Source of the DNA: Dehalococcoidia bacterium
GTDB lineage: Bacteria > Chloroflexota > Dehalococcoidia > Bin125
NCBI GenBank assembly: GCA_022828105.1
Contig: JAJEJC010000001.1
Coordinates: 109,471-173,470 of the forward strand
Reading direction: 5' to 3'
DNA: 64,000 nucleotides
Under the pieces are notes generated by a model. The model was given only the letters and a program-made list of their open reading frames with translations, was not told where the DNA came from and searched no databases. The translations under genes and the position numbers were made by a program. Positions within the stretch are counted from its first letter, which is position 1, and each line of letters starts with the position of its first letter. Below, piece by piece: positions 17,862 to 59,574 of the stretch.

Positions 17862-18222
17862 GCGTCGGGTGTTGCGATAGTCGTGTTACGGAAAGTAGCC
17901 GCCGCTCCAGGCAGTCGGCAGCGGCGGAGCCTAGAGTGAGACGGACTCGCGAGCGGGCTCGGCGAAATCGCTCGGCGGTCGTTGAGCGGACCGTGCGCGC
18001 AGACAGGGGGACGTGGTCCACGATCGTCATGACCGATGGTCACGCGCAACCGTGTTCCAGTGGTTTGGCGGCGGGGCTTCTCCTTCACTGTAGTGGCTGT
18101 TAGGTAGTCCCCTGCGCACGATCCGCTCAACGATCTCCGAGCGCCCGAGCGGCGCCCGCGGTCTCCTTTCCCTGTGGTCGCGACCAACGCGAATGACACG
18201 GAGCGCTCTGACGAGTGAGGCA

Positions 18223-29346: not shown

Positions 29347-32300
29347 TTACCACGTATCGACGTATGGGCGTTTCTTGCCCGTTCGATGCGGCGTGGGCGG
29401 CAGCCGCTTGATGCCGTTGGTGATCCAAGTGCGGGTCTCGGCCGGATCGATCACATCGTCGAGGCCGCCGCCGGCGGCCGCGTTGACCGCCTTGGCGTTG
29501 TGGTAAGCCCGGTCGACCATCTTCTCGTAGGTCTCGATCCGCTCCTCCGAGTCTTCGATCGCGATCAGTTCTTTGCGATAGCCGAGCTTGACCGAGCCCT
29601 CGATGTTCATACCGGCGAATTCGGCCGTCGGCCAGGCGACCGTGAAGAAGCCGACCAGGGCGCTGGCGCCGCACATCGCCTGGACGCCCAGCCCGTACGC
29701 CTTGCGCACGACGACGCCGAAGAGCGGCACGCTGAGGTTGGCGCCGGTGTTGAACATCCGCGCGCAGTGGCGCACCAGCGCGGTCGCCTCAACGTCGGGG
29801 CCGACCATCATCCCGGGACAGTCCATCAGGCTCAGCACGGGAATGTCGAATGCGTCGCAAAGCTGGAGGAAGCGCGCGCCCTTGTCTGATCCGTCGGAGT
29901 CGATTGCGCCGGCGAGATGGTGCGGGTTGTTGGCGATCACGCCGATTGGGTGTCCTTCGACGCGGATAAATGCGGTAATGATCCCGATCCCGAACTGCTC
30001 GCGGATCTCGAGCACCGAGCCTTCATCGGCGATGGTGTCGATGATCTCGCGCATGTCATAGAGACGCAGCCGATTCTCAGGCACGATGTGCCGCAAGCGG
30101 CGCTGGTCGGGCGCGGTCCAGTCTGCGATTGGACCCTGGAAGTAGCTCAGGTACTTCTTGGCCACCTCGGTCGCTTCGTCTTCGTCCTTGCAGAGGATGT
30201 CGACGACCCCGTTCGGGACCTGGAACGACATCGGCCCGACTTCCTCGGGTGTGTAGATGCCGAGTCCGCCGCCTTCGATCATCGCCGGACCGCCCATGGC
30301 GACGGTTGAGCCCTCGGTGGCGATGATCACGTCGCAGCAGGCGAGCAGCGCGGTGTTGCCGGCGAAACAGCGGCCGTTGGTCACGCCAACCAGCGGCACC
30401 AGACCGGAGAGCTTGGAGAACTGCGTGAAGGTATAAGTGTCGAACGCGACGCCGGGACCGGTGCGGTCATCGCCCGGCCGCCCGCCGCCACCCTCGGTGT
30501 AGAAGACTATCGGGAACTGGAAGCGCCGCGCCATCTCAAACATGCGGTCCTGCTTGTAGTGGTTGCGACCGCCCTGCGTCCCCGCGAGCACGGTGTAGTC
30601 GTAATGCACCACAATCGCCCGCGCCGCCTGCTCGTCGAACAGGTCGCCGTTGATCGTCGCGGTGCCGGCCAGCAGGCCGTCGGCGGGCGTGTTCTCGCGA
30701 AGTTGCTCATCAGTGTTGCGCTGATGTTGGCGCGCGACGATCAGCGGCCAGTATTCCTGGAACGAGCCGGGATCGACGAGCTGCTCGATGTTCTCGCGCG
30801 GCATCCGGAAGCCCCGCGCGAGCCGTTTGGACACCGCCTCGGGTCGGTGCTCGTCCAGCGTGTAGGCGTGGCGTTCGTAACTCTCCTGCAGGTCGGGACG
30901 GATGAAGTCGGGATCGATCAGTTCACCGCCGCCGATCGCTTCGACCGAGACCTCCGCTTCGAGGATGAAGACGAGCGGGAATCCCTCGCGGATCACGTCT
31001 CCGACCGAGCAGGCGACGCCTTTGATCACGCCGTCGCGATCGGCCTGGATCACATGCTCCATCTTCATCGCTTCCATCGCGACGAGATCCTGACCCTGCC
31101 GCACCTCCTGGCCTTCTTCGACCATGATCGAAACAATCGTGCCCTGAATCGGCGCCGGCAGACCGATCGAACCCTCGGGTCCGGTGAGATCAGGAGCGTC
31201 CTCTGCGATGTCCTGGGTTGACTGCTCTTGCTTGACTCGCTGGTCGTGCTCGAACAGCGCCAGCGGATCGCGAGAGTCGACCCGCGCGCCGGCGAAGCCG
31301 GAGTCGGCCGCAGGCGCATCGGTTCTCAGGTAGCGGACGCGGTCGGTCCCGTTGGTGGCTGCCAGCTCCGACATCTGCTCATCGACCCAGCGCGTGTGCA
31401 CGCGGCCGCTGGCCAGATCATCATGACGGAGCACGTTGCCGAGGAAGGGAATGTTGGTCGCGACGCCCTCGATTCGGAACTCAGACAATGCCCGAAGCGA
31501 GCGGGTCACGGCGTCGGCAAAGTCTGGCGTGGTCGAGTGCGCGATCACCTTGGCCAGCAGCGAGTCGAACGCGGTCGAGGTCTGGTAGCCCACATAGCCA
31601 AACCCGTCGGTGCGGACGCCCGGGCCGGACGGGGCTTCGTACGCCTTGAGCACTCCTGCGGCAGGGCGGACCTCGCCGTCGGCGGTCAGCGTCTCCATGT
31701 TGACGCGCGTCTGAATCGCGAACCCGCGCGGCCGGAGCCAGGAGGGATCGTCCAGGCCGAGGTCGGCAATGCTTGCGCTCTGGGCAACTCGCAGTTGCGA
31801 CTGGACCAGGTCGACACCGGTGACCTGCTCGGTCACGGTGTGCTCAACCTGCAGCCGCGCGTTGGCCTCGAGGAAGTAGAAGCGGTCGTCCGAACCATCC
31901 GATGCGTCAAGCAGAAACTCGAACGTGCCCAGCGACAAGTAGCCGACGTCGCGGGCGATCTGCACCGCCGCGTCGACGATGTCGTCGCGCGTTTCTTGTT
32001 CCAGGTGCGGCGCCGGTGCAATCTCGACGATCTTTTGGAATCGCCGCTGGACCGAGCACTCGCGTTCCCAGAGATGGGCGACGCCGCCGTGTAGATCGCC
32101 GATGATCTGCACTTCGATGTGCCGCGCTCGGGGGATGAGCTGCTCGACGTACAGTGCGCCGGAACCAAACGCCATCTGCGCCTCGGATTCGCAGCGCTGC
32201 CAGGCCGATTCGAGTTCATCGAATTGGTGCACCGCCCGCGAGCCGCGACCGCCGCCACCGGCGACCGCTTTGATCATCAATGCTGCGCTGTCGCCGAGCG

Positions 32301-32757
32301 ATTCGAAAAATTCCGCCGCTTCGCTCAGACTGACCGACTTGTCCGACCCTTCGATCACGGCCACGCCCGCCTCGCGGGCCGCCTGTCGCGCCCTGACCTT
32401 GTCGCCGAACAGATCGAGCAGGTGCGGCGTCGGGCCGACGAATGTGATGCCCGCGTCGCGGCAGGCGCGGGCGAAGTCGGCCGACTCGGCCAGGAATCCG
32501 TAGCCGGGATGGACGGCGTCGCAACCGGCCGATTGCGCCGCGGCGATCAGCCCGTCGATGTCGAGGTACGCGGGCACGCCGAGTCCGTCGAGCGCGACCG
32601 CTTCATCCGCCGCGTGGACGTGCAGCGAGCGGTCGTCGTCCTGCGAGTAGACCGCAACCGTGCCGATACCGAGGTCGGACGCCGCGCGAGCGACGCGAAT
32701 GGCGATCTCGCCACGATTGGCGATCAACAGCTTGGACACGGCTCTACTCGGCGGCAT
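29347..32757 (-). CDS. single-chain acyl-CoA carboxylase (biotin carboxylase + BCCP + carboxyltransferase fused, 1136 aa)
   Basis: N-terminal BC (LLIANRGEIAIRVARAA...ATP-grasp), central biotinyl domain (EAMKMEH) and a C-terminal AccD/PccB-like carboxyltransferase (GGGGRPGDD...MGGPAMIEGGGLG...MDCPGMMVGPDVE). Confidence 0.9.
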   Translation of the reverse strand: MPPSRAVSKLLIANRGEIAIRVARAASDLGIGTVAVYSQDDDRSLHVHAADEAVALDGLGVPAYLDIDGLIAAAQSAGCDAVHPGYGFLAESADFARACRDAGITFVGPTPHLLDLFGDKVRARQAAREAGVAVIEGSDKSVSLSEAAEFFESLGDSAALMIKAVAGGGGRGSRAVHQFDELESAWQRCESEAQMAFGSGALYVEQLIPRARHIEVQIIGDLHGGVAHLWERECSVQRRFQKIVEIAPAPHLEQETRDDIVDAAVQIARDVGYLSLGTFEFLLDASDGSDDRFYFLEANARLQVEHTVTEQVTGVDLVQSQLRVAQSASIADLGLDDPSWLRPRGFAIQTRVNMETLTADGEVRPAAGVLKAYEAPSGPGVRTDGFGYVGYQTSTAFDSLLAKVIAHSTTPDFADAVTRSLRALSEFRIEGVATNIPFLGNVLRHDDLASGRVHTRWVDEQMSELAATNGTDRVRYLRTDAPAADSGFAGARVDSRDPLALFEHDQRVKQEQSTQDIAEDAPDLTGPEGSIGLPAPIQGTIVSIMVEEGQEVRQGQDLVAMEAMKMEHVIQADRDGVIKGVACSVGDVIREGFPLVFILEAEVSVEAIGGGELIDPDFIRPDLQESYERHAYTLDEHRPEAVSKRLARGFRMPRENIEQLVDPGSFQEYWPLIVARQHQRNTDEQLRENTPADGLLAGTATINGDLFDEQAARAIVVHYDYTVLAGTQGGRNHYKQDRMFEMARRFQFPIVFYTEGGGGRPGDDRTGPGVAFDTYTFTQFSKLSGLVPLVGVTNGRCFAGNTALLACCDVIIATEGSTVAMGGPAMIEGGGLGIYTPEEVGPMSFQVPNGVVDILCKDEDEATEVAKKYLSYFQGPIADWTAPDQRRLRHIVPENRLRLYDMREIIDTIADEGSVLEIREQFGIGIITAFIRVEGHPIGVIANNPHHLAGAIDSDGSDKGARFLQLCDAFDIPVLSLMDCPGMMVGPDVEATALVRHCARMFNTGANLSVPLFGVVVRKAYGLGVQAMCGASALVGFFTVAWPTAEFAGMNIEGSVKLGYRKELIAIEDSEERIETYEKMVDRAYHNAKAVNAAAGGGLDDVIDPAETRTWITNGIKRLPPTPHRTGKKRPYVDTW

Positions 32758-32873: not shown

Positions 32874-35372
32874 TCAGTCAACGGCCACCCTCTCGCCGGC
32901 CCGCACATCGTCCATCGTCCCGCTGATGCCCCGTTCGACCAGCGAGCGGTACTCCGCCTCGGTCATCCCCAACTCCTGGGCAAACACCTCGAACGAGTGT
33001 TGGCCGACGCATGGCGACGGCCTGAGCTGCCGATCTTCCGACCCGCTGAATCGCCACGGCGCGCCCGGCAGCCACGACGGTCCGACCTCGGGATGCTCGA
33101 CCGACTGCACGAATCCGTTGGCCAGGTAGAGCGGGTCGGGCTCCATGAACTGCTCGTACGGCTTCGCCACCCGTGCGGCGTCCATGCCGAGCTCCAGGAG
33201 TCGGCGCTCCACGGAGTCCGCAGGTTGAGACGAGGTCCAACCGCCGATGATCTCGTCAAGCGCCGACTCGTTGCGTTTGCGAGATGCGGCGTCCATGAAT
33301 CGCGGATCAGCCGCCAGTTCGTGCGCCCCCAGTTCGAGACAGAGGGACGTCCACTCGGACTCGCTGCCGACCGCAATCGCGACCCACTCGTCGTCGCCCG
33401 CGCAGGGGAAGACGTTGTGCGGCGCGCGCTCACGGTCGCGATTGCCGAGCGGGACCGGCAAGCGGCCGGTGGCGTCGTACTCGGCGATCGCGTCGCCGAC
33501 GACCACGCCCATCGCCTCAAGCATGGCCACGTCGATCCGTTGTGGTCCGCCGACTCGTTCGCGGCGAGCCAGCGCGGCGATCACGGCCGCGGCCATCGCA
33601 TAGCCGGAGATCGAGTCGGGATACAGGCCGCCCGTATTCATGCCCGGGTCGCCGTCGTAGCCGTGGATCGAGGACAGTCCCGACATCGGTTCGGTCGTCG
33701 CGCCGTTGGCAGGATAGGCGGAGAAGGGTCCGGTCACGCCGTAGCCCGAGATCGAGGCAAGGATCACGTCGGGGCGCCGTGCGGCCAACGCGTCCAGGGT
33801 GATCCCCCAGCCGTCCAGCACGCCGGGCCGGAAATTCTCGCAGACGACATCGAAGTTCGGCATCATGCGCCAAAAGATGTCCTTGCCCTCGTCGGTGTTC
33901 AGATCGAGCGTGATTCCGCGCTTGTTCAGATTGACCGCGTTGTAGACCCCCTGCGTGTTCTCGGGATGTTGCGTCTTCGACTCGTCCAGGACCGCCTTGC
34001 CGACCCAGGGCCGCAGCAGCCGCCAGATGTCGATCCGACGCAGCGCTTCGATCTGCACCACGTCCGCGCCCAGGAATCCCAGCAGCTCCGTGCCAAACGT
34101 CCCGCTCCACGCCTGCGTGAAGGTCAGGATGCGGATGCCGTCGAGCGGACCGTTCGAGGTCGGCGGTGAGCCCCCCACTGCCTTCGGCATCTCCCCCCGC
34201 TTCGCGGGGGGAGAGCGGCGATCCTGGTCCGCTCCCAGCCTTGGCGCCGGCGATCCTTGCGACCAGCTTGGCGGGGAGATCGGATGCAGATCGCCCGACG
34301 CGCGCACCGTCCGCCCCTCGATCTCTGTCTCGACGATGAACCCGCGCGATTGCAACTGTTCGTTTTCGACCAGCTCCGGAATCGTCTGCAGCACCCCGGA
34401 GATGCAGCGCAGCGCGGCCAGTCTGTGGAACAGCGGCCACTTCTGCATCGCCGGCAGCTCGCGAGCCACGCCCGCCACGACGGCGGTCAAGTCCTGCGAG
34501 TAGCGTTGGTTGCGCGCCTGCAACTCCTCGCGCGCGCCCTGGTCGGGCAGATTGAACAGCGCCATCGCCTCGCGCCAGTTGTGCCAGTCGCCGAAGCCAA
34601 AGTTCATCCGCCCGTCGGCGGCGTCCCAGAGCGGTCCCGGCTCGCCGCGAGGCCGGCCGCCGGTCGCGCCGCGCGACCAGCCGCTGCCCTGGTAGATCGC
34701 GCCGATGGTCCAGGGGTAGACGGTGTGCGTCATCGCCTCAATCTCGCGGACATCGACCAGTTCAGGAGCGGCAGACTCGGAGCGACGACGCAAGGCAGCG
34801 GTCGCGGCGACGAACGCGGCGAGTCCGCCCATGTAGCCGAACTGGCGCGAGGGCAGCGAGAGCGGTGGCTCGTCCTGGAGTGCGTTCACGTGCGCCCAGC
34901 CGCAGCGCGCATTCAGCGTCAGGCTGCTGCCCGGCGCATTCGCCATCGGACCTTCCAGTCCATAGGGCGTGACCGAGAGATGAACCGCGTCGGGCCGCAT
35001 CGCCGTAAGCGGCCAATCCGAGAGCGCGCTCGGGCCATCGGTCGTCACCACCACATCGGCCGCGGCGATCCACGGCTCGGACTCTGCCTCGTCGGCGATT
35101 ACGACCGAGCGCTTGCCCCAGTTGACGTAGGCGTGCAGCGCCGAGCGCTCGACGCCGGCTTGGTCGTCGAGGAAGGGCGCTTCATGCCGGAGCGGATGAC
35201 CCTCGGGCGGCTCCAACATCACCACCTCTGCGCCGTGGTCGGCGAACAGCCGAGCCGCGAACGCTCCCGACATCCGCCGCGACAGGTCAACCACCAGCAG
35301 GCCGTCGTAAGCGGGAACAAGCTCCTCGGTCATTGCGTCGCTCACCCAATGCTCAGTGTGATTCAGCATCAC
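32874..35372 (-). CDS. tandem-fused family III (CaiB/BaiF) CoA-transferase, two complete domains in one 832-aa ORF
   Basis: Domain 1 (LVVDLSRRMSGAFAARLFADHGAEVVMLEPPEG) and domain 2 (IRILTFTQAWSGTFGTELLGFLGADVVQIE) are each about 400 aa. The linker contains a repeat-element copy in frame. Confidence 0.82.
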   Translation of the reverse strand: MMLNHTEHWVSDAMTEELVPAYDGLLVVDLSRRMSGAFAARLFADHGAEVVMLEPPEGHPLRHEAPFLDDQAGVERSALHAYVNWGKRSVVIADEAESEPWIAAADVVVTTDGPSALSDWPLTAMRPDAVHLSVTPYGLEGPMANAPGSSLTLNARCGWAHVNALQDEPPLSLPSRQFGYMGGLAAFVAATAALRRRSESAAPELVDVREIEAMTHTVYPWTIGAIYQGSGWSRGATGGRPRGEPGPLWDAADGRMNFGFGDWHNWREAMALFNLPDQGAREELQARNQRYSQDLTAVVAGVARELPAMQKWPLFHRLAALRCISGVLQTIPELVENEQLQSRGFIVETEIEGRTVRASGDLHPISPPSWSQGSPAPRLGADQDRRSPPAKRGEMPKAVGGSPPTSNGPLDGIRILTFTQAWSGTFGTELLGFLGADVVQIEALRRIDIWRLLRPWVGKAVLDESKTQHPENTQGVYNAVNLNKRGITLDLNTDEGKDIFWRMMPNFDVVCENFRPGVLDGWGITLDALAARRPDVILASISGYGVTGPFSAYPANGATTEPMSGLSSIHGYDGDPGMNTGGLYPDSISGYAMAAAVIAALARRERVGGPQRIDVAMLEAMGVVVGDAIAEYDATGRLPVPLGNRDRERAPHNVFPCAGDDEWVAIAVGSESEWTSLCLELGAHELAADPRFMDAASRKRNESALDEIIGGWTSSQPADSVERRLLELGMDAARVAKPYEQFMEPDPLYLANGFVQSVEHPEVGPSWLPGAPWRFSGSEDRQLRPSPCVGQHSFEVFAQELGMTEAEYRSLVERGISGTMDDVRAGERVAVD
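34158..34205 (+). repeat. REP/MITE-like element copy inside the CoA-transferase inter-domain linker (GAGCCCCCCACTGCCTTCGGCATCTCCCCCCGCTTCGCGGGGGGAGAG)
   Basis: Translated in frame as ...SPPAKRGEMPKAVGGSPP... between the two CoA-transferase domains. Confidence 0.8.
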
Positions 35373-37024: not shown

Positions 37025-38707
37025 TTATGGCACGCCCGACTTCTGCGGCCTCGCCGATGCCAACGACCTGACATGCGGGGCGAACGCCCTTGCGCCATTC
37101 GGCGAGGAGCCGTTGGCTGAGAGTGCCGGCTGTGGAGATGCCTCGGGACCGCCCAGCGACGTGGCCTGCTCGAGGCGTTGACGGCGGGGGACCAGGATCC
37201 AGCCGACGACGCCCGCGACCACGGCGAAGCTGATCCCGAAGAAGAAGGTGCGCTTGATCGACTGCACGAACGAGTCGGTCAGGGTCGCCTGCACGTCTGC
37301 GGCGATGCCGGGATCGAGTCCCGGCAGCAGGTGATAGGCCGCGCCGATGCCCGAGGCCATCGTGTCGATGTCGGCGGTGGAGAGCGGCAGACCGCTGAGG
37401 CCGTCGCGGACGCCGGAGGCGTACATCACGGCGGCGAAACTGCCGAGGATGGCGATCGACATCGTGCCGCCCAACTCCTGGCCGGTCGTGGTCACCGCCG
37501 ACGCTTTGCCGGCCATGTCGACCGGCACGGCGGCCATCGAGGTATCGGTCGTGGCCGGCATATGCAGAGAGCCTCCGATGCCAAGCCAGGCGAGCGCCAG
37601 TCCGACCATCCAGTAGGGCGTGTCGACCGCCAGCACCAGGGCCAGGATCAGCAGGCAACCGCCGCCGTGCATGGTCGGCGCCCAGAAGAGCAGGAATCGC
37701 GGACCGACCCTGGGCAGGATGAACCCGGCGATCGGCGCGCAGACGATCATCACGACGGCCAGCGGCATCACGCGCAGGCCGCTCTCGGCGGCCGAGACGC
37801 CCTGCACAAGTTGGAAGAACTGGGGCAGATAGAACAACACCCCCATCAACGCGAACATGATGAAGAACATGCCGACCATTGCGCCGACGAAGTCGCGTTG
37901 CTTGAAGAATCCAAGCGGCATCAGCGGCTGCTCGGTGCGCCGCTCGATCAGGATGAACGCCGAAAGCGAGAGCACGGCCACCGTGATCGTGGCGAGGATC
38001 ACCGGGTCGTCCCAACCGCGCGGGATGCCTTCGATGATCGAAAAGACCAGCGCCAGCATGCCGACCGTGCCGGTCAGCGCGCCGGGCACATCGAGTCGGG
38101 TGTGCAACACGGACTTGGTCGAGGGCACGATGGTCAAGGCGACCAGCGCCAGCGCCGACAGCGGGGCGGGCACCCAGAAGACGGCCGACCAGTCGATCTG
38201 ATCGACCAGCGTCCCGCCCAGGAACGGGCCCAGGGCCATGCCGATACCCATTGCCCCGGCCCAGATACCGAACGCCTTGCTGCGCTCCCGGCGCGGGAAC
38301 ACCGCGGTCAGCGTGGACAGCGTCTGAGGTAGCACGAGCGCGCCGCCGATTCCCTGCAATCCGCGGCCGATGATCAGGAAGTTGGCGTCGGGCGAGAAGG
38401 CTACGCCGATCGATGCGATGGTGAACACGGTGAGACCGATGCCGAGGATCCGGCGGCGGCCGAAGCGGTCGCCCAGCGCGCCGGCCAGCAGCAGCAGGCC
38501 GCCGAACAGCACCAGGTAGACGTCGACGACCCAGAGCGACTGCGACTCGGACATCTCGAAGACGCGCTTGATCGTCGGCAGCGCCGTGTTCACGATCGTC
38601 GCGTCGAGCGAGACGATGGTCTGCGATCCGGCAAGGATTGCCAACACGACCCAGCGCCGTCGCGGGCTGACGTCGACGGAGGCGACGATGCCGTCGGCGG
38701 CACTCAC
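37025..38707 (-). CDS. MFS transporter, DHA2 (14-TM) family
   Basis: LDATIVNTALPTIKRVFEMSESQSLWVVDVYLVLFGGLLLLAGALGDRFGRRR. Confidence 0.88.
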   Translation of the reverse strand: MSAADGIVASVDVSPRRRWVVLAILAGSQTIVSLDATIVNTALPTIKRVFEMSESQSLWVVDVYLVLFGGLLLLAGALGDRFGRRRILGIGLTVFTIASIGVAFSPDANFLIIGRGLQGIGGALVLPQTLSTLTAVFPRRERSKAFGIWAGAMGIGMALGPFLGGTLVDQIDWSAVFWVPAPLSALALVALTIVPSTKSVLHTRLDVPGALTGTVGMLALVFSIIEGIPRGWDDPVILATITVAVLSLSAFILIERRTEQPLMPLGFFKQRDFVGAMVGMFFIMFALMGVLFYLPQFFQLVQGVSAAESGLRVMPLAVVMIVCAPIAGFILPRVGPRFLLFWAPTMHGGGCLLILALVLAVDTPYWMVGLALAWLGIGGSLHMPATTDTSMAAVPVDMAGKASAVTTTGQELGGTMSIAILGSFAAVMYASGVRDGLSGLPLSTADIDTMASGIGAAYHLLPGLDPGIAADVQATLTDSFVQSIKRTFFFGISFAVVAGVVGWILVPRRQRLEQATSLGGPEASPQPALSANGSSPNGARAFAPHVRSLASARPQKSGVP

Positions 38708-38773: not shown

Positions 38774-40510
38774 CTAGGGCACGCCCGACTTCTGGGGACG
38801 CACCAACGCCGTTGCCTGCGCAGCAAGGCGGAGGTCGCCCGCGCCGTTGGCGGATGCGCCGGCCGGTCGGGCGGCGGTCCGACCGTTGGCCGAGGCGCCG
38901 TTGGCGGCGGCCTCCGGGGCCAGGGTCAACTTGCATGAGGAATCGACGGGCTTGCCGTCTTCCCACTGCATCTGTGTCTGACGTTGCCGCTTGGGGACCA
39001 GGATCCAACCGACTACCCCGGAAATGAGCGCGAAGATGATGCCGAAGCGCATCGTGTCGGTGATCGCGTCGACGAAGGACTCGCGCAGCACGAGTTGGGT
39101 CTCCTGGAGCAGCGATGCATCCAGCGTCGGCAAGACCTGCTGCGCCGCCCCGATGCCGGTCGCGAGGATTTCCACGGACTGTTCCGGCAGTCCAATTGGA
39201 GCAAGCCCTGAGTTGACCCCGGAGGAGTACACGGCTGCAGCGAAGGAACCGAGAATCGCAATCGCCAGCGTGCCGCCGAGCTGGCGTCCGGCATTGTTGA
39301 CCGCCGACGCTTTGCCAGCCAGGTCGACCGGCACCGAGGCCATCGCCGTGTCGGTGGTGGCCGGCATATGCATCGCGCCGCCCATACCGAGGAAGGCCAG
39401 GCCCAGGCCGATTATCCAGTAGGGCGTGTCGATATCGAGGACGAAGCTGAACAACAGCAGCGCCCCGCCGCCGTGGATCGCAGGAGCCCAGAAGAGCATG
39501 AAGCGTGGACCCAGCACCGGCAACAGGCGCGCCGCGACCGGCGCGAAGAACATCATCATTAGCGCCAGCGGCATCAGCCGCGCGCCGCTCTCGGTGGCCG
39601 ACATGCCCTGCACCAGTTGGAAGAACTGCGGCATGTAGAACATGACGCCCATCAAGGCGAACATGATGAAGAACATCCCGATCATCGACCCGGTGAAGTC
39701 GCGCTGCTTGAAGAACGCCATCGGCAGCAGCGGCTGATCGGTGCGCCGCTCGATGATGATGAACAGCAGCGCCGACACGATCGCGACCGCGAACGATCCC
39801 ACGATCAGCGAGTCGGTCCAGCCCTTCTGGATGCCCTCGATGATTGCGAAAACGATGGCGACCATGGCGATCGTGCCGGTGATCGCGCCGGGCACGTCGA
39901 GCTTGGTGTGCAACTGCGAGCGCGACTCCGGCACCACCGCCATGCCGAGCATCGACAGCGCCGCGATCGGCGCGGGCACCCAGAAGACGCCCGCCCAGCC
40001 GATCAGGTCGACGAGCACGCCGCCGACCAGCGGGCCGAAGGCCATGCCGAATCCCATCGCGCCGGCCCAGATGCCGATTGCCCGGCCTCGTTCCTCGCGC
40101 GGGAAGACCGCAGTCAGGATCGACAGCGTCTGCGGGATCACGAGCGCGCCGCCGAGACCCTGGAGACCGCGTCCGACGATCAGGAAGTTGGCATCGGGCG
40201 AGAAAGCCACCGCGATCGAGGCGGCGACAAAGATGCCCATGCCGATCATCAAGGTCTTGCGGCGACCGAAGCGGTCGCCCAGCGCGCCGGCCAGGAGCAG
40301 CAGGCCGCCGAAGATCACCATGTACGCGTCGGCGACCCAGAGCGATTGCGACTCCGACATCTCGAAGGCGCGTTTAATCGCGGGCAGGGCGGTGTTGATG
40401 ATCGTCGCGTCGAGCTGGACCAGCATCTGCGCGCCGGCCAGCACCAGCAGGATCGCCCAACGGCGCCGGTTCGTCGCCGGCCCCGCGCTCGTCGTCGGCT
40501 GAGCGCTCAT
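38774..40510 (-). CDS. MFS transporter, DHA2 family (tandem paralog of the downstream gene)
   Basis: LDATIINTALPAIKRAFEMSESQSLWVADAYMVIFGGLLLLAGALGDRFGRRK, which is about 60-70% identical to the neighbouring gene. Confidence 0.88.
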   Translation of the reverse strand: MSAQPTTSAGPATNRRRWAILLVLAGAQMLVQLDATIINTALPAIKRAFEMSESQSLWVADAYMVIFGGLLLLAGALGDRFGRRKTLMIGMGIFVAASIAVAFSPDANFLIVGRGLQGLGGALVIPQTLSILTAVFPREERGRAIGIWAGAMGFGMAFGPLVGGVLVDLIGWAGVFWVPAPIAALSMLGMAVVPESRSQLHTKLDVPGAITGTIAMVAIVFAIIEGIQKGWTDSLIVGSFAVAIVSALLFIIIERRTDQPLLPMAFFKQRDFTGSMIGMFFIMFALMGVMFYMPQFFQLVQGMSATESGARLMPLALMMMFFAPVAARLLPVLGPRFMLFWAPAIHGGGALLLFSFVLDIDTPYWIIGLGLAFLGMGGAMHMPATTDTAMASVPVDLAGKASAVNNAGRQLGGTLAIAILGSFAAAVYSSGVNSGLAPIGLPEQSVEILATGIGAAQQVLPTLDASLLQETQLVLRESFVDAITDTMRFGIIFALISGVVGWILVPKRQRQTQMQWEDGKPVDSSCKLTLAPEAAANGASANGRTAARPAGASANGAGDLRLAAQATALVRPQKSGVP

Positions 40511-45654: not shown

Positions 45655-46827
45655 TCAGTCCCCGATGGTCCGGGTTGGGAAGTCCCTGGCGGGGTGGGCT
45701 TTAAGGACTTCTTCGTCGAGGTCGATGCCGAGGCCGGGGGTTGTGGGGAGGGCGATGTGGCTGTCTTCGACCTGGAAGGCGGGTGTGGCGGCCTGTTGGC
45801 CCCAGGGTTCGAAGTTGACGAAGTACTCGGTGATGATGAAGTTGGGCATCGTGGCGGCGGCGTTGAGGGTTGAGGCGAGGGCGACGGTGGTCGAGTTGTA
45901 GTTGTGCGGGGCGACGGCGACGAAGTAGACCTCCGCCATAGCGGCGATTTCGGTCAGTTCCTTGATCCCGCCGACGTTGGCGACATCGGGGTTGATGATC
46001 TCGGCGGCGCGCTGCTCGAAGGCCTCGCGGAATTCGAACTTGGTGTAGAGCTCCTCGCCGGTGACGGTTGGGATGTTGATCTGCGCGGTGGCGGCGGCGA
46101 GGGCGGTCATGTTCTCGGCCCAGACCGGCTCCTCGAACCAGAACGGCTCGTACTCCTCGACCATCTGCGAGAGTCGGACGGCGTTGGACGGGCTGAGGCG
46201 GCGGTGGATTTCCAGCAGCACGTCGACGTCGGGTCCGACGGCCTCGCGCACAGCGCGCACGCGCTCGGCGGCGAGGCGGAGTTCCTTCATCCCGACGTAG
46301 CTCCGCCACTTGCCGGGCACGGGGTCGAACTTGAGGGCGGTGAAGCCTCGCTCGACCATGGCGCGTGCGCGGGCCTGGAGCTCATCGATGTCATCCATCC
46401 TGGCCCAGCCGTTGGCGTAGACGCGCAGCCGATCGCGGACCGCGCCGCCGAGGAGCTGGTGGACGGGCAGGCCCGCGCGCTTGCCGGCCAGGTCCCACAT
46501 TGCCTGTTCGACGCCGGAGACGGCGGAGTAAAGGTCCATCGCGCCGCGGCGGTTGCCGAAGTCGTTGTAGATCGCGTCAGTCCAGGGCTTGATCCGGGCG
46601 GCGTCCCAGCCGACGATGTAGCGCCGCATGGCGTCGAGGTGGGCGGTGATCTGGATGTCGCGGTCGGACTGGGTGTAGCACTCGCCCCAGCCGTGCAGAC
46701 CGTCGGCGGTTTCGAGTCGGACGAAGCAGAGGTTCTTGCCGGCGATGTAGCGGTCGGGCTGGCCGCTGTCCGGCGCGGTTGGGTGAACGAGGTAGTAGCG
46801 CAGGTCGACGATGGTGGAGTCGGTCAT
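45655..46827 (-). CDS. enolase-superfamily enzyme (mandelate racemase / muconate lactonizing enzyme family dehydratase)
   Basis: MR/MLE N- and C-terminal domains (KFDPVPG...LLEIHRRL...FEEP...). The start is ATG 46825-46827; the upstream part of the track ORF is a translated repeat. Confidence 0.86.
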   Translation of the reverse strand: MTDSTIVDLRYYLVHPTAPDSGQPDRYIAGKNLCFVRLETADGLHGWGECYTQSDRDIQITAHLDAMRRYIVGWDAARIKPWTDAIYNDFGNRRGAMDLYSAVSGVEQAMWDLAGKRAGLPVHQLLGGAVRDRLRVYANGWARMDDIDELQARARAMVERGFTALKFDPVPGKWRSYVGMKELRLAAERVRAVREAVGPDVDVLLEIHRRLSPSNAVRLSQMVEEYEPFWFEEPVWAENMTALAAATAQINIPTVTGEELYTKFEFREAFEQRAAEIINPDVANVGGIKELTEIAAMAEVYFVAVAPHNYNSTTVALASTLNAAATMPNFIITEYFVNFEPWGQQAATPAFQVEDSHIALPTTPGLGIDLDEEVLKAHPARDFPTRTIGD

Positions 46828-46878
46828 TGGGGGCTCGCAATCAGTTGGGGCCGGGTCGCTCATACGATATCGGCGTGT

Positions 46879-46938
46879 GGGGCAGCCCCCCTCTGCCTTC
46901 GGCATCTCCCCCCGCCTGACGGCGGGGGGAGAGGGGAA
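46879..46938 (+). repeat. GC-rich REP/MITE-like element, canonical copy (GGGGCAGCCCCCCTCTG-GCCTTCGGC-ATCTCCCCCCGCCTGACGGCGGGGGGAGAGGGGAA)
   Basis: Seen directly; located upstream of the enolase-superfamily gene. Confidence 0.85.
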
Positions 46939-47101
46939 TAGGCGGGGACGCGGGAGGGCGGTCCGCGCCGACATCGTGGTCGTCAAGCGGGCACGGGGCG
47001 CTGAAGAGCGCGTCGTAGAGCAGGCGCTGGCGGTCGGTTGGAAAAAACGGCGTTCAGCGTGCAGCTGCTCGACTACGCCCCGCAGCGGCCAATCTGCGGG
47101 A

Positions 47102-47476
47102 TTAGGGCGGTTCATCATCGTCATGGTTGGAGCCGTCCTCGTCTTCCGGTTCGTCGCTGGCGATGCCGAAGTGCGCTTCGGCGCGTGCGATTTCTTCTTC
47201 GGTCGGGGGCGAGCCGTTCTGAATCTCAACGACCCGTTTGTAGCCGGGGCTGATCTCCTCGGGGACTTCATTGGCGTCGTTGTGCAAGGCCGCGCGGGCG
47301 GTGTCGTAGGCGAGCCTGGCTTCGTAGTGGGCCTGGGCGTAGAGACCCTTGATGTGGGCGAGGGCTTTGGTGGCGCTGTGCTGGACGTAGGCGGGGCCGT
47401 TGGTGGCCTGGTGTCGGAGTTGGTCGATGATGGCGTCGTTGGTGAAGGGGAGGGGTGGGTTGGCGGCATGGGACAT
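47102..47476 (-). CDS. hypothetical small protein with an acidic C-terminal tail
   Basis: MSHAANPPLPFTND...ASDEPEDEDGSNHDDDEPP, with GGAG 10 nt upstream of ATG 47476. It lies co-directionally immediately downstream of the nuclease gene. Confidence 0.4.
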   Translation of the reverse strand: MSHAANPPLPFTNDAIIDQLRHQATNGPAYVQHSATKALAHIKGLYAQAHYEARLAYDTARAALHNDANEVPEEISPGYKRVVEIQNGSPPTEEEIARAEAHFGIASDEPEDEDGSNHDDDEPP

Positions 47477-47570
47477 GAGGTGAACTCCTGCTCGTGGTGT
47501 CAGGGGTTCGATCTTATGCACACTGGTGTTCGATGTGGGGTGTGAGGGTGTGGTGGGGTTGACTGGAGGA

Positions 47571-48537
47571 CTATTCATGTGTGATCGAGACGCTGTCGTT
47601 GGCGACGATGATGAAGTTGGTGGAGCCGGGGATGACGCGCCCGTCGCGCTCGGCGTAGGCGAGCCAGCGGACGCCGCTCCACTTCCAGAGCGCGGCGACG
47701 CTGTAATCGGTCAACAGCGAGAAGAGATAGGCCGCGGTCCAATGCGGGGCTGACTCGAGGGACGGAGTGGGGACGGAAGCCGCGGATTCGCCGGTCCGAG
47801 CGCTGCGGAGGGAGATGGGTGCGGTTGTTGCGTCGGAAGACGTTGACGTGGTGGTCTGGCTGTCCTGGTCCACCGTGATGGCGGCGCAATCACGGGCCAG
47901 TGCCGCTTCATTAGCCAGGCGCTCCGCGGGATCGATCAACAGTCCGTAGTTTGCCTTGACCTGGATGGTGATCGTGGCAATGTGCTTGCGCTGGGCGCAA
48001 CTGCCGCCGCTCCACTCAGCGAGATCATGGTCGGATTTGCTGATGTTGGTACTGGCCAGCAGACACCATTGATTGAGCGGATCGTTGGCGAACTGGCGCT
48101 TTTGGGCGGCGGTCCAGGTCGAGGCGCTGGAATCGTAGGCTTCCTTCAGGGCGACGATGTGATCGACGTGTTCGGATGAAGCGCAGCCGAGGCGGGCACG
48201 GGCGGCGCTGGAGTTGTAACTCCAGTTGTCGCGGTCGTAGCCGGTGGAGGAGGTGGGGCCTGTGCCTGAGGATCCGGTCGATGTACCAGGCCAAAGCGGG
48301 TTGGATTCGCAGCCGACGCCGTCTCCGTCGCGGTCGTGTCCATGACCATCGATCACCTTGTAGGGATAGTGGCTGGCGCAGTTGCCGTCAGCCGAGATAT
48401 GCGCTACCCCCCCCCCCCCCACTTAACGATGCGTTTACAAAGGCAGCCATTCCGGCGACGAGCCCGACGCCGACGAGCAATGCAAGACGAACTGTGCGGG
48501 GTCGGCTGATGTTTGCGCGTGCGTGGCTGCTGACCAT
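47571..48537 (-). CDS. secreted Excalibur + DUF1524/HNH-like nuclease, interrupted by a frameshift at a G14 homopolymer
   Basis: The 5' frame (48537-48421) encodes the Sec signal peptide MVSSHARANISRPRTVRLALLVGVGLVAGMAAFVNAS-LSGGGGG and stops at 48388. The +1 frame from 48422 encodes GGGGVAHISADGNCASHYPYKVIDGHGHDRDGDGVGCE (Excalibur DxDxDGxxCE), then EHVDHIVALK...NDPLNQW...NISKSDHD (His-Me finger). Tract 48407-48420. Confidence 0.7.
48407..48420 (-). repeat. homopolymeric tract (G)14 on the coding strand at the signal-peptide/mature-protein junction
   Basis: Fourteen consecutive C on the plus strand. A tract length of 13 or 16 would restore one ORF. Confidence 0.95.
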
Positions 48538-48628
48538 GTTGTGCTCCGGTTGGTTTGAGGGACGTTTAGGGAAGCATCGCACAGGATTGGGTCGTCTGTT
48601 GTGCGGTTGACTTGGGTGCCGCGTGAGC

Positions 48629-48720
48629 GGGGAGCCCCCCTCTGTCCCCTGCCTACGCAGGGGCAGGCTCCTACGGGACATCTCCCCCCGCCTGACAGCG
48701 GGGGGAGAGGGGAAGGGGGG
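48629..48720 (+). repeat. REP/MITE-like element, long variant with nested hairpins (GTCCC[CCCTGC-CTAC-GCAGGG]...GGGAC, then CATCTCCCCCCGCCTGACAGCGGGGGGAGAGGGGAAGGGGGG)
   Basis: Seen directly in the divergent intergenic region between the nuclease gene and the 48749 gene. Confidence 0.85.
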
Positions 48721-48748
48721 ACTGCGGCTAACTGTTAGGGTGCGGGCC

Positions 48749-49228
48749 ATGTCTTTGTTTGAGTCCTCCCAGTGTGAGTTTGAGACTGCGTTTCAGCTTC
48801 TTCCGGAGATCAGCCCGGAGGCGCCGGACTGGGGCGGTCGGTTCCGTCGGGAGATGCCGTCGGTCCCGTCGCCGTACTACGGGGTCAATGTGGTGGACGT
48901 TCGGCGGGAGCACTACGACGCCGTGTTCCAGAACATCCAGGGCCAGGTGCAGGGCGCGGAGCAGCTATTCGGCGGGCGGCTGCATTTCTTTTCGGCGACG
49001 GACTACGGGGAGATCCGGCGCGTCATCTTCATCATCTACTTCGAGAGCTTTCCCGCGACCGAGAGCGTGCTTGAGATGCTGCGCGCAGGCGGAATGGATG
49101 TGGGCGACGACGCGAGCGAGATTCCCGACATCTGGACAGGGTTCGACCTCTGGACCGATTTCACTCGTCTAGCGGAGGGCTATACGTGGTGGATCGCGCC
49201 TGCGATGGCGGAGCACGAGTCGCCGTAG
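48749..49228 (+). CDS. hypothetical cytoplasmic protein (about 160 aa)
   Basis: ATG 48749 (MSLFESSQCEFETAFQLLPEISPEAPDWGGRF...). No family recognised. The track ORF extends upstream into the repeat. Confidence 0.5.
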   Translation: MSLFESSQCEFETAFQLLPEISPEAPDWGGRFRREMPSVPSPYYGVNVVDVRREHYDAVFQNIQGQVQGAEQLFGGRLHFFSATDYGEIRRVIFIIYFESFPATESVLEMLRAGGMDVGDDASEIPDIWTGFDLWTDFTRLAEGYTWWIAPAMAEHESP

Positions 49229-49250: not shown

Positions 49251-49333
49251 GGGGATGCCCCTTGAGCCTTCGGCATTTCCCGCCGCTGCTCGGGCGGAGA
49301 GGGAGCGGGTCCCTGTGGTCACAGGGACTAGGA
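49251..49333 (+). repeat. degenerate REP/MITE-like copy with CCCTGTGGTCACAGGG hairpin
   Basis: Its GCCTTCGGCAT module is shared with the canonical copies. Confidence 0.6.
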
Positions 49334-49355
49334 GTCGTCCAGCCTAGGCCGGCGT

Positions 49356-49415
49356 GGGGGAGCCCCCCTCTGTCACTACGTGACATCTCCCCCCGCCTTC
49401 GGCGGGGGGAGATGG
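49356..49415 (+). repeat. REP/MITE-like element (GGGGAGCCCCCCTCTG-TCACTACGTGA-CATCTCCCCCCGCCTTCGGCGGGGGGAGATGG)
   Basis: Located between convergent genes (48749 gene and the vWA gene). Confidence 0.85.
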
Positions 49416-49426
49416 AGCCGAGCGGG

Positions 49427-51280
49427 TTAGCCGGCGTAACCGGGGTCTTCGGATTGGCGCTCCTCGGCGACGGCGCCCATGGCCTGGAGGAGCTGGGCGA
49501 AGTCGCGGCCTGCCTGTGAGTCGAGGATGGTCGCCGGGAGATCTCGATATCGCCGGGCGATCTCGTTGAGGTTTTCGGCAGCGAGTTCCATCGTTTCCCG
49601 ACTCAAGCCGTCCTGACCGAACCAGCTATAGCGGTCGGCGGCGAGGGCGACGACTGTGCCGAGGTCGAGCAGGTCGTCGTCGCCGAAGCGCGAGACGGCG
49701 CTGATCATCTCCACCTGCTGGCGGTTCGACTCTTCCGACATCGGCGTCAGCCAGCGCAGCTCGATCTCACCGAGATCTACGACGTCGTCGTTTAGCGCAT
49801 CGCCGGTCAGTTCGACCTCGTAGAAGATGGTCGTGGCCGAGCCCATCGGGATCTCTGCGAACTCCCGGCGGTCCTGTTCAAAGTTGCGGTCGGCGGTGAC
49901 CCGGTTCTCGTAGCCGACGAGACGCCAGCCGGCGACGGCGTGTTCGTCCCAGCGGACCTGGGCGCGGGCCTGGTCGGCGAATGGGACCGAGAGTGCGAGC
50001 CAGTTCTCGCGGCTGAAGGTTGAGCGGGCCTGATCAACGTCCTGTAGATAGCGGTACCAGCCGTTGCCGTACTGGGCGAGCTGTTCGAGCAGCACGTCGT
50101 TGTAGTTGGCGATGCCCACGCCGACCGTGATCAGTCGTAACGGGTTGGAGTCGTTGCGATCTTCGGCCGTGCGCAGAATGGTGAACGGGTCGGTGGCGTC
50201 GACGTTGGCGACGCCGTCGGACATGAGGATCACGTAGTTGTAGGCGTCGGGCCGCTCGCGGCGGATGTCGTCGGCGAGTTCGACGCCGAGGTTGAGTCCG
50301 GCCTGGACATTGGTGGAGTCGAGCGGCGTCAACCGGTCGATGACGCGCTGGATGCCGCGGTCGCCCGGGCGCTCGTGCCTGGCGTGGTCGACGATGCCGT
50401 TGGAGAAGAGCACGACGGCAATGCGGTCGTCGTCGCCGAGCCCGCGGCGGATCGATTCGGCCGCAGCGCGGGCAATCTCGACGCGGTTGCCGTCGCGCAT
50501 GGAACCGGAGGAGTCAAGCACGAGAGTGACGTTGAGCGGGGTGTTGTCGACGAACTCGGGCGCCTGCGTGGCGATGCGGACGAGGTGGAGGTCGTCGTTG
50601 AGCGGGTGCTCGACGATGTCGGCGGTGACGGCGAAGCTGTCATCGACATCGGGACCGTCATAGCGGTAGTTGAAGGCGTTGATCCATTCCTCGGCGCGGA
50701 CCAAGGCGGGATCGATGGCATAGCCGTTCTGGACCCAGTTGAGGGCGAGGAAGTACGAGGTGCGGTCGACGTCGAGGGAGAAGGTGGAGGTGTCGTCCTG
50801 GTCGGTGTCGCGCCAGCCGAGGGTCGGATAGTCCTCGAAGTTGGTCGCACCGGGTCGGGGACGGAGAGTGACCTGCTCCTGTTCGTCCTCCGGGTATGGC
50901 CCGCCGGAGTTGGGGAAGGCGGCGCTGCTATCCTCCTCCGCTTCCTCCTGCATGGCCTGTGCTTGGGCCTGTTCTTGGGCCTGTTCTTGGGCCTGCTGCT
51001 GCATGGCCTGCTCTTGCTGCTGCATGGCCTGCTGTTGTTGCTGCACGGCCTGCTCTTGCTCTTGCTGGTACTGGACATGCTGGGGTTGCTGGGATTCCTG
51101 TTGCTGCGCCTGCGCGACCGCGGTCGGCTGCTCCGCTTGCGGCTCGGCCTGCTGGACGGACTGCCGGGCGTCCTGATCGTCGCTGCACGCCGCGAGCAGG
51201 ATGGCGGCGGCGATGATCGGCAGGGCGATTGCTGCGGCGCTGCGTTTGAGGAATCTGCGGGTTCGCTGGATCGTTGTCAT
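49427..51280 (-). CDS. lipoprotein with a Gln-rich low-complexity linker and a von Willebrand factor A domain (YfbK-like)
   Basis: Signal peptide plus lipobox (ILLAAC) and the MIDAS motif DSSGSM (VTLVLDSSGSMRDGNRVE). The linker is AVQQQQQAMQQQEQAMQQQAQEQAQEQAQAQAMQEE. Confidence 0.8.
   Translation of the reverse strand: MTTIQRTRRFLKRSAAAIALPIIAAAILLAACSDDQDARQSVQQAEPQAEQPTAVAQAQQQESQQPQHVQYQQEQEQAVQQQQQAMQQQEQAMQQQAQEQAQEQAQAQAMQEEAEEDSSAAFPNSGGPYPEDEQEQVTLRPRPGATNFEDYPTLGWRDTDQDDTSTFSLDVDRTSYFLALNWVQNGYAIDPALVRAEEWINAFNYRYDGPDVDDSFAVTADIVEHPLNDDLHLVRIATQAPEFVDNTPLNVTLVLDSSGSMRDGNRVEIARAAAESIRRGLGDDDRIAVVLFSNGIVDHARHERPGDRGIQRVIDRLTPLDSTNVQAGLNLGVELADDIRRERPDAYNYVILMSDGVANVDATDPFTILRTAEDRNDSNPLRLITVGVGIANYNDVLLEQLAQYGNGWYRYLQDVDQARSTFSRENWLALSVPFADQARAQVRWDEHAVAGWRLVGYENRVTADRNFEQDRREFAEIPMGSATTIFYEVELTGDALNDDVVDLGEIELRWLTPMSEESNRQQVEMISAVSRFGDDDLLDLGTVVALAADRYSWFGQDGLSRETMELAAENLNEIARRYRDLPATILDSQAGRDFAQLLQAMGAVAEERQSEDPGYAG
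50950..51110. repeat. in-frame tandem DNA repeats (GGCCTGTTCTTG x3; CTGCATGGCCTGCTCTTGCTG x2) encoding the Q-rich linker
   Basis: Seen directly. Confidence 0.8.
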
Positions 51281-51390: not shown

Positions 51391-51566
51391 GGGGCGGGGC
51401 GCCCCCTCTGTCACTACGTGACATCTCCCCCCTGGAAGGGGGGAGAGGCAGACGGATGCCCTCCCCCCCCCGGCATGGAGGCGGGGGGAGATGCCGAAGG
51501 CAGACGGATGCCATCTCCCCCCGCCTGACGGCGGGGGGAGACGCCGAAGGCAGAGGGGGTTCGCCT
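51391..51566. repeat. nested array of at least three REP/MITE-like units in alternating orientation
   Basis: GCCCCCTCTGTCACTACGTGACATCTCCCCCCTGGAAGGGGGGAGAGGCAGACGGATGCC...GGAGGCGGGGGGAGATGCCGAAGGCAGACGG...CATCTCCCCCCGCCTGACGGCGGGGGGAGACGCCGAAGGCAGAGGGGG, in the divergent intergenic region between the vWA gene and the ThuA-like gene. Confidence 0.85.
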
Positions 51567-51606
51567 ATCATTGGCGCACTTGCTGACTACTGAGAGAGAG
51601 GGCACC

Positions 51607-52422: not shown

Positions 52423-52452
52423 TTGACCGTCAACCGGTCGGCGTTTCTTGTT

Positions 52453-52510
52453 GGGAGCCCCCCTCTGCCTTCGGCATCTCCCCCCGCCTGACGGCGGGAG
52501 GAGAGGGGAA
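52453..52510 (+). repeat. REP/MITE-like element (3' arm mutated to GGCGGGAGGAGAG) followed by two further GC hairpins to about 52612
   Basis: Located between convergent genes (ThuA-like and the alpha/beta hydrolase). Confidence 0.8.
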
Positions 52511-53660: not shown

Positions 53661-53696
53661 GTAGTGAGATCGTATCACTCGCTGCGAAGAGAGCGT

Positions 53697-53756
53697 GGGG
53701 AGCCCCCCTCTGTCTCTACGAGACATCTCCCCCCGCTTCGCGGGGGGAGAGGGAAC
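53697..53756 (+). repeat. REP/MITE-like element (GGGGAGCCCCCCTCTG-TCTCTACGAGA-CATCTCCCCCCGCTTCGCGGGGGGAGAGGGAA)
   Basis: Located between two co-directional genes. Confidence 0.85.
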
Positions 53757-59507: not shown

Positions 59508-59522
59508 TGAGCCGATTCCCTT

Positions 59523-59572
59523 TCCCCCCGCTTGGCGGGGGGAGATGTCACGGAGTGACAGAGGGGGGCTCC
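59523..59572 (-). repeat. REP/MITE-like element in inverted orientation (CCCCCCGCTTGGCGGGGGGAGATGTCACGGAGTGACAGAGGGGGGCTCC)
   Basis: This is the reverse complement of the canonical architecture, ending 2 nt before the MNT start codon. Confidence 0.85.
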
Positions 59573-59574
59573 GC

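Follow-up and report, generated by a model that had tools for sequence, protein, structure and literature searches.

An otherwise intergenic double-hairpin repeat lies in frame in the interdomain linker of a double family III CoA-transferase of Dehalococcoidia

A 64-kb stretch of DNA from a Dehalococcoidia bacterium (hereafter the window; G+C 65.7%) carries an open reading frame (ORF) in which two family III (CaiB/BaiF-type) CoA-transferase domains are joined by a linker that contains, in frame, a copy of a short G/C-rich repeat, which we call element A. The explanation that we prefer, and hold to be very probable, is that a hairpin repeat that otherwise lives between genes inserted in frame into the tolerant linker of an ancient, DddD-like double CoA-transferase. 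The features on which this account rests are the following, with positions counted from the first letter of the window:

32874-35372, minus strand: double family III CoA-transferase ORF, 832 aa from a GTG codon; the probable true start is Met14, giving 819 aa
34227-35306, minus strand: domain 1, CoA_transf_3, degenerate (aa 23-382; 151.6 bits; profile positions 2-365)
32994-34145, minus strand: domain 2, CoA_transf_3 (aa ~410-793; 303.6 bits; profile positions 1-366)
34152-34232, minus strand: hypervariable interdomain linker, aa 381-407, flanked by conserved APRLG and GPLDG motifs
34163-34217, plus strand (antisense to the gene): linker copy of element A, found with an nhmmer profile of the window copies (E=3e-12)
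34188-34190, minus strand: Met395 codon (ATG), contributed by the element (GGCATCTCC read backwards)

By repeat finding, alignment of copies and the nhmmer profile, element A was defined as a family of ~58-nt double-hairpin repeats with 11 copies in the window. Each copy is laid out as GGGGAGCCCCCCTCTG, a hairpin 1 that is either short (GCCTTCGGC) or long (GTCACTNCGTGAC), and a second hairpin of the form ATCTCCCCCCGC-loop-GCGGGGGGAGAGGGGAA. Within the plus-strand sequence between the two domains, GAGCCCCCCACTGCCTTCGGCATCTCCCCCCGCTTCGCGGGGGGAGAG, the linker copy comprises a 5' C-run (34168-34179), hairpin 1 GCCTTCGGC (34180-34188) and hairpin 2 TCTCCCCCCG-CTTCG-CGGGGGGAGA (34190-34214). Read on the minus strand, it encodes SPPAKRGEMPKAVGGS (aa 387-402), or SPPAKRGEMPKAVGGSPP when the in-frame reading is extended to aa 387-404 (34161-34214); the tryptic peptide expected from the linker is AVGGSPPTSNGPLDGIR, and AEGGSPPTSNGPLDGIR in relatives. 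A 23-nt hairpin, CTCCCCCCGCTTCGCGGGGGGAG (34191-34213), recurs exactly at 53727-53749 and with two mismatches at 59522-59544, and no such recurrence is expected from 100 dinucleotide-preserving shuffles. The first-pass annotation of this DNA, made from the letters alone, had already seen an in-frame element resembling a repetitive extragenic palindromic (REP) sequence at this place. The element itself was borne out by the profile match and the 10 other window copies, but not its span of 34158-34205, since the copy runs to about 34217; nor is the linker about 40 aa long, as had been stated, with 27 aa between APRLG and GPLDG.

The 10 remaining window copies all fall between 46.8 and 59.6 kb and are all intergenic, as judged by the G+C content of third codon positions (GC3) and Pfam matches:

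46877-46937, plus strand: element A, intergenic, directly upstream of the real start of an MR_MLE enolase-type gene
48628-48713, plus strand: element A, intergenic, with extended hairpin 1
49252-49416, plus strand: two intergenic copies of element A between convergent genes, one degenerate (49252-49309) and one intact (49355-49416)
51395-51569: cluster of three intergenic copies of element A, at 51395-51452 (plus), 51460-51511 (minus) and 51509-51569 (minus)
52449-52509, plus strand: element A, intergenic
53695-53755, plus strand: element A, intergenic; hairpin 2 identical to that of the linker copy
59516-59575, minus strand: element A, intergenic

Two ORFs that run over element copies, 45655-47469 and 48623-49228, were rejected as coding at those copies, given that Pfam domains and ATG codons place the real starts downstream of the element. 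The intact copies fold, as single strands, with z-scores of -3.7 to -6.4 relative to shuffled sequence. Because the pattern used to find copies fixed both arms of hairpin 2, pairing statistics cover hairpin 1, which was paired in 97.6% of cells among 25 long-hairpin copies from many genomes; one of its pairs was changed on both sides in five sequences, from A-U to C-G in four and to U-A in one. Four to five of the six reading frames of an element A copy are free of stop codons, and reading through a copy is therefore easy wherever its length keeps the frame. At the ends of the element, an incomplete terminal inverted repeat sets GCCCCCCTCT (CCCCTCT) against AGAGGGG. An Rfam search in E-value mode over 46-60 kb gave only chance-level matches and no known RNA family, and a strict scan of IMG/VR viral contigs with the element core gave no match, hence no sign of carriage by phages at that stringency. 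ORF 47102-47578 (158 aa), which lies near the repeats, had no Pfam match. About 20 related loci and 31 stretches of JGI metagenome sequence contain further copies of element A. A 55-aa concatenate of the element's three reading frames, searched against a database of 5.8 billion proteins, yielded seven candidates and four short unannotated matches, and was uninformative.

To date the fusion relative to the element, we compared the 120 best protein clusters, as well as 80 loci from the 191 species genomes with a relative in a scan of one genome per species. All 120 clusters are 804-856 aa long, with identities to the query from 92% down to 53%, and all 80 loci align as one gene over residues ~20-825. 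The loci belong mostly to metagenome-assembled genomes (MAGs) of Dehalococcoidia, with Gamma- and Alphaproteobacteria and one Planctomycetia MAG at about 50% identity; among the isolate names are IRC, RHO, COS and SB06xx, which we take to be bins from sponge metagenomes. Motifs of the element occur in 29 of the 49 closest clusters, all of them at least ~74% identical to the query, and in none of the 71 more distant ones (<=72% identity). No element motif at all was found in 20 of the 48 closest clusters. On this distribution, the CoA-transferase fusion is ancestral and predates the element. The comparison of orthologues had been suggested in the first-pass annotation, which left two possibilities side by side. 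Of these, in-frame insertion into an existing linker agrees with the comparison, whereas a joining of two formerly separate genes by the element does not, the gene being single in 80 of 80 loci and most clusters being element-free. The absence of the motif from all 71 clusters at or below 72% identity likewise speaks against an ancestral linker sequence unrelated to the repeat. The further view that such a fusion is unusual for family III enzymes was overstated. Full-length doubles with 27-33% identity are present on 12 plasmids of unrelated bacteria, and for DddD two CaiB domains have been reported, spanning positions 1-416 and 439-821 (PMC7174347); since doubles are widespread and DddD is so described, fused family III enzymes are a known architecture.

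The presence of two complete family III domains in the one ORF, also proposed at first pass, was confirmed when the halves were scanned separately with Pfam CoA_transf_3 (PF02515, CaiB/BaiF; 366 profile positions, cut-off 23.3 bits), each half giving a full match. In family III enzymes, the catalytic Asp (Asp169 of Frc and CaiB) forms acyl/CoA anhydride-thioester intermediates. Asp586 of domain 2 (33615-33617) aligns with the Asp of Escherichia coli YfdE and with that of chain B of BbsEF (9fn0_B), while the catalytic-Asp position of domain 1 is occupied by Gly179 (34836-34838); both residues are invariant in 34 orthologues. Domain 1 is probably non-catalytic, because the invariant Gly179 replaces the catalytic Asp. 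Among solved structures, it comes closest to chain A of BbsEF (9fn0_A, E=5.5e-21), which also has no Asp there but Arg, and domain 2 comes closest to chain B (E=6e-54, 30% identity, TM 0.87); PDB entry 9fol is titled as a D178-CoA adduct. An AlphaFold2 model of the protein, a check that had also been proposed, reached a pTM of 0.85, and each of its halves matched solved family III chains with TM-scores of 0.72-0.88 normalised to the target. The linker was modelled as low-confidence coil: there is no secondary structure over ~aa 363-413, and pLDDT drops below 50 at aa 393-403, inside the element-encoded peptide (aa 387-402). Taken together, these data suggest that the protein is probably a single-chain pseudo-heterodimer with one active site, the covalent counterpart of a BbsEF-type heterodimer. 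In an NCBIfam scan, no equivalog reached its cut-off for the double CoA-transferase.

Orthologues begin with MTEELV, which corresponds to Met14 of the ORF (ATG at 35331-35333), so that the real start is probably Met14 and the annotated GTG codon probably lies too far upstream. The 13 codons before Met14 (MMLNHTEHWVSDA, window 35331-35372) are missing from the closest orthologue, P0001, which is 92% identical and begins MTEELV.

The stretch bounded by the conserved AP.LG and GPLDG motifs varies among orthologues from ~22 to 63 aa in length and is hypervariable in sequence. At the DNA level, the profile detected element A, in both orientations, in the linkers of L002, L003, L004, L005, L007, L012, L014, L021 and L023, which makes 10 genomes with the window included; none was detected in those of L006, L009-L011, L016-L020, L022 and L024-L028. 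Copies antisense to the gene read SPPAKRGEMPKAEGGS and sense copies SPPLSLRDISPRGAGGE. Convergent antisense and sense copies are paired in the linkers of L003, L004 and L005, an intact antisense copy stands next to a decayed sense remnant in those of L012 and L023, and decayed remnants are found in those of L008, L012 (the sense copy) and L015. The linkers of L005, L007 and L014 hold slippage-like repeats of the element's 3' arm. They consist of two to three tandem units of ~24 nt, read as GAGGEMDQ, GAGGEWQP and GAGEEQDI (at L014 11150-11230, L005 11185-11260 and L007 11165-11230), which appear to derive by slippage of the 3' arm GCGGGGGGAGAG.

A second hairpin repeat, element B (CCCGTCCCCGACTTGATCGGGGACCCGCTCGGTGCC), occupies the linkers of L001 and L013, as well as those of P0003, P0019 and P0020, where it reads VPDLIGDPLGA, and it has five further sites in the loci, of which some may be coding:

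Element B sites: L001 11120-11157 and 8135-8155; L013 11105-11142; L005 3237; L015 12482; L021 5538; L028 7767

Linker and gene can also differ in their degree of relatedness. P0033 and P0041 share about 96% identity in the rest of the protein and differ wholesale in the linker; L002 and L013 are about 90% identical in nucleotides across the gene, with unalignable linkers; and the linker of L002 is 92-97% identical to that of L021, versus 78% for the whole gene. The linker thus records at least three insertions (element A in sense, element A in antisense and element B) and, judged from these alignments, acts as a permissive sink: hairpin repeats enter it, duplicate, decay and replace one another there.

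Element A is also read in frame in the genes of other proteins. Among 50 strong matches to the element in 1.7 Mb of orthologous loci, 13 sit in the CoA-transferase linker, a share that is biased because the loci were picked for containing this gene, and 36 of the other 37 are intergenic. The sole exception, L076 9705-9763, was judged not to be a real coding case. Candidate intragenic copies in L095/L108/L110, L105 and L076 were rejected, the spanning ORFs being Arg-rich nonsense or 5' extensions. In the 31 JGI metagenome stretches, which were scanned with the element core, in-frame cases were taken to be long ORFs with high GC3, and Pfam domains on each side of the element were checked. In DnaE (L088), the element lies in frame between the finger and HhH domains and is read in a third frame, as SFSPRSAGGDAEGRGGS; in MurE (L097), it lies in frame inside the middle domain; and in a paralogous double CoA-transferase (L109 3836-3895), it lies in the protein's own interdomain linker, in the same orientation and frame. 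In all three proteins, Pfam domains in the same frame flank the element. The L109 paralogue is 793-833 aa long and belongs to a different subfamily, and its domain 2 starts ILDFTHVLAGP. A terminase large subunit (L093 4184-4511, the same sequence as L096 730-1057) carries an insert of ~110 aa made of three element copies after its ATPase domain; here the Pfam match (Terminase_3/Terminase_6N) is N-terminal only.

We next considered the internal ATG, from which, it had been suggested at first pass, domain 2 could be expressed separately. The element does supply this codon, that of Met395; the ATG belongs to the element consensus and is present in every antisense copy, intergenic ones included. 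Its use as a start for domain 2 is another matter, and nothing supports separate expression from Met395. The linkers of element-free orthologues lack Met, L005 has ATT at the Met395 position, and the only Shine-Dalgarno-like sequence, a purine-rich G-run, abuts the ATG within a G/C stem of 10-11 bp.

The preferred account can be put as follows. In this anciently fused enzyme, the N-terminal half is probably a non-catalytic partner domain and the C-terminal half carries the catalytic Asp, with the protein probably working together with the adjacent single-chain acyl-CoA carboxylase described below. An unstructured linker, apparently free of sequence constraint, would join the two halves. In one sub-lineage of Dehalococcoidia, apparently sponge-associated, a G/C-rich double-hairpin repeat of ~55-60 nt and of REP type or miniature inverted-repeat transposable element (MITE) type would have landed in this linker. 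The insertion would have been tolerated, adding only about 16 residues of coil rich in Pro, Gly and charged residues, because most frames of the element are stop-free and surviving copies add whole codons. Later turnover of the linker could then have produced both orientations, the convergent pairs, the slippage repeats and the decayed remnants, along with element B in other genomes. What the sequences show is the anatomy of the gene, the age of its fusion, the pattern of element presence and absence among orthologues, and in-frame copies in further proteins; that the linker copy is a nearly neutral passenger, mobilised in trans and read through by the ribosome, is what we infer from them.

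Several observations weigh against this account. The sequences flanking the window copies of element A show no target-site duplications, and Pfam scans of ~20 window proteins revealed no transposase, including none of the REP-associated tyrosine transposase (RAYT) kind. An alignment of the DNA of P0033 (element-free, L081) with that of L012 (element-bearing, with a protein ~96% identical outside the linker) yielded no clean empty site, the linker being replaced wholesale without clean indel boundaries. Single-copy linkers are only ~6 aa longer than element-free ones, though the element adds 16 aa. For the 48-nt antisense linker copy, identity is 85-100% between genomes that agree at only 51-62% of the third codon positions of this gene and whose linker codons neighbouring the copy are unalignable. 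Finally, the intact antisense linker copies are all of one subtype (short hairpin 1 and loop GCTTCGC) that is absent from about 55 non-linker copies. Between distant genomes, conservation is just as high for the element A family at large, with its intergenic copies, which makes turnover of young copies a sufficient general explanation; the subtype common to the linker copies argues for their common descent. Candidate causes of the conservation of the linker copies are constraint at the nucleotide level, conversion by a master copy and recombination of linker alleles over short tracts.

The conservation of the linker copy also bears on whether nucleotide-level selection retains it, be it for ribosome pausing between the halves of an interlocked pseudo-dimer, mRNA stability or processing, binding of a host factor or an internal start for domain 2. 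Such selection would account for synonymous sites that are several-fold more conserved inside the element than in the rest of the gene, for the single subtype of the intact antisense copies, for changes in L003 and L004 that fall in the loop and keep the stem, and for the folding of the minus strand (mRNA sense) of the linker copy, to -20.3 kcal/mol as single-stranded DNA. The element cannot be required, however, because many close orthologues do without it or have decayed, different or reversed copies. Moreover, the equal conservation of intergenic copies means that turnover of young copies explains much of the signal, and an internal start is opposed by the loss of the ATG in L005 and by the burial of the Shine-Dalgarno-like run in a stem. 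We therefore regard nucleotide-level selection as improbable. A broader version would make element A the Chloroflexota counterpart of the Rickettsia palindromic elements (RPEs), systematically colonising loops and linkers proteome-wide in sponge-associated Dehalococcoidia, with its linker copies held at the nucleotide level by an mRNA hairpin that separates translation and folding of the halves of such a pseudo-dimer, or by a host-factor site; this, too, we find unlikely, if by a little less.

The remaining alternatives fare far worse. The position of the element exactly between the domains could suggest that it created the fusion from adjacent subunit genes by replacing a stop codon, spacer and start codon, and two-gene heteromeric family III enzymes do exist: SmtAB consists of two different subunits, and BbsEF is the best PDB match for both halves. 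Yet the same single gene stands without the element in 20 of the 48 closest and in all 71 distant clusters, and also in Proteobacteria and Planctomycetia at about 50% identity; as the element is limited to a young subclade and outgroups exclude an element-bearing ancestor, this origin is almost certainly wrong. High-GC genomes are rich in G/C hairpins, and several convergent genes have element A at their 3' ends, so that the linker peptide might be ancestral coding sequence and the intergenic copies unrelated hairpins or terminators. The 23-nt exact match, the profile similarity over about 50 nt (E=3e-12), the absence of the motif from all orthologues at or below 72% identity and the finding of both orientations in the same linker render this very improbable, and the element is unlike an intrinsic terminator because no T-run follows the hairpin. 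Misassembly is also a classic problem at repeats, where a false join or a collapsed frameshift could make two genes look like one. More than 100 independent assemblies, among them closed long-read chromosomes (OZ... records), give an uninterrupted ORF with or without the element, and we give an assembly artefact next to no credence. In-frame insertion into the linker of a pre-existing double enzyme is accordingly the explanation with which we proceed.

Immediately downstream of the CoA-transferase gene, and co-directional with it, lies the carboxylase mentioned above:

29347-32757, minus strand: single-chain biotin carboxylase-BCCP-carboxyltransferase, 1136 aa

Its best PDB match is the long-chain acyl-CoA carboxylase (LCC) 4rcn (1036 bits). 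The two genes adjoin in about 60 of the 80 loci, where the carboxylases are 66-94% identical, and the pair spans Dehalococcoidia, Gamma- and Alphaproteobacteria and Planctomycetia. The CoA-transferase and the LCC-type carboxylase thus appear to constitute a conserved two-gene module, of which a narrow literature search found no description. Further neighbours of the CoA-transferase gene encode a GMC oxidoreductase and MFS transporters. In the window, the latter include tandem paralogues (37025-38707 and 38774-40510, minus strand) that are 74-77% identical in nucleotides over 300-nt blocks at a spacing of 1806 nt, and both have a C-terminal extension of ~150 aa past the MFS_1 domain. Two other repeats were seen in the window. 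A 46-nt inverted repeat (17953-17998 and 18114-18159; 78% complementary, 115 nt between the arms) is unrelated to element A, and a repeat with a 21-nt period (TGCTGCTGCATGGCCTGCTCT...) occupies 50943-51065 inside a vWA-domain gene (49427-51280).

These findings have consequences beyond the one gene. A single interdomain linker has served as a recurrent sink and preserves, in dozens of genomes, a record of repeats that were inserted, duplicated, worn down or replaced, which makes it a system suited to studying the evolution of disordered linkers and the filtering of mobile hairpins by frame and structural tolerance. For annotation, such inserts should not be taken as gene fusions or internal starts. 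The CoA-transferase/carboxylase module, for its part, is open to biochemical characterisation.

Among known enzymes, the window protein resembles DddD, the CoA-transferase/lyase of dimethylsulfoniopropionate (DMSP), in being a single chain of ~820-840 aa with two tandem CaiB domains (PMC7174347). The likeness is one of architecture; in place of a ddd operon, the window gene has as neighbours the LCC-type carboxylase, a GMC oxidoreductase and MFS transporters. For CoA-transferases of SAR202, DddD has been reported as the top Swiss-Prot match (PMC5395668), and large expansions of CaiB-type enzymes are known from SAR202 and sponge Chloroflexota (PMC5395668, PMC6306507). With BbsEF, the succinyl-CoA:(R)-benzylsuccinate CoA-transferase (PDB 9fn0), the window protein shares two non-identical family III halves of which only one has the Asp. 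The halves of BbsEF are separate polypeptides, however, whereas those of the window protein are covalently linked, and identity is 23-31%.

As a repeat, element A is like REP sequences and bacterial interspersed mosaic elements (BIMEs), and like bacterial MITEs, including intragenic enterobacterial repetitive intergenic consensus (ERIC) sequences (PMC10969869), in being small, non-coding, hairpin-forming, multi-copy and mostly extragenic. The cluster at 51395-51569 shows the inverted arrangement seen in REP/BIME arrays. Compared with a classical REP, element A is longer and has two hairpins.

The closest parallel to its life inside genes is provided by the RPEs (Ogata et al., 2000, 2002), which, in the summary given in PMC10969869, are palindromic repeats found both in intergenic regions and in frame in unrelated protein genes. 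As summarised there, RPEs share with element A that they are short palindromes that add a peptide without destroying the protein and that recur across related genomes. At about 55-60 nt (16-19 aa), as against the about 100-150 bp given for RPEs in that summary, element A is much shorter, and it is extremely G/C-rich. There is probably no sequence relation between the two, homology being implausible by composition and length. The hosts differ as well, being free-living or sponge-associated Dehalococcoidia for element A and an obligate intracellular alphaproteobacterium for RPEs. In-frame 'selfish' palindromes have been viewed as nearly a peculiarity of Rickettsia, and element A offers an unrelated, much shorter case from another phylum and lifestyle, set apart from RPEs by its use of at least three reading frames, its insertion in both orientations and its repeated uptake by one linker.

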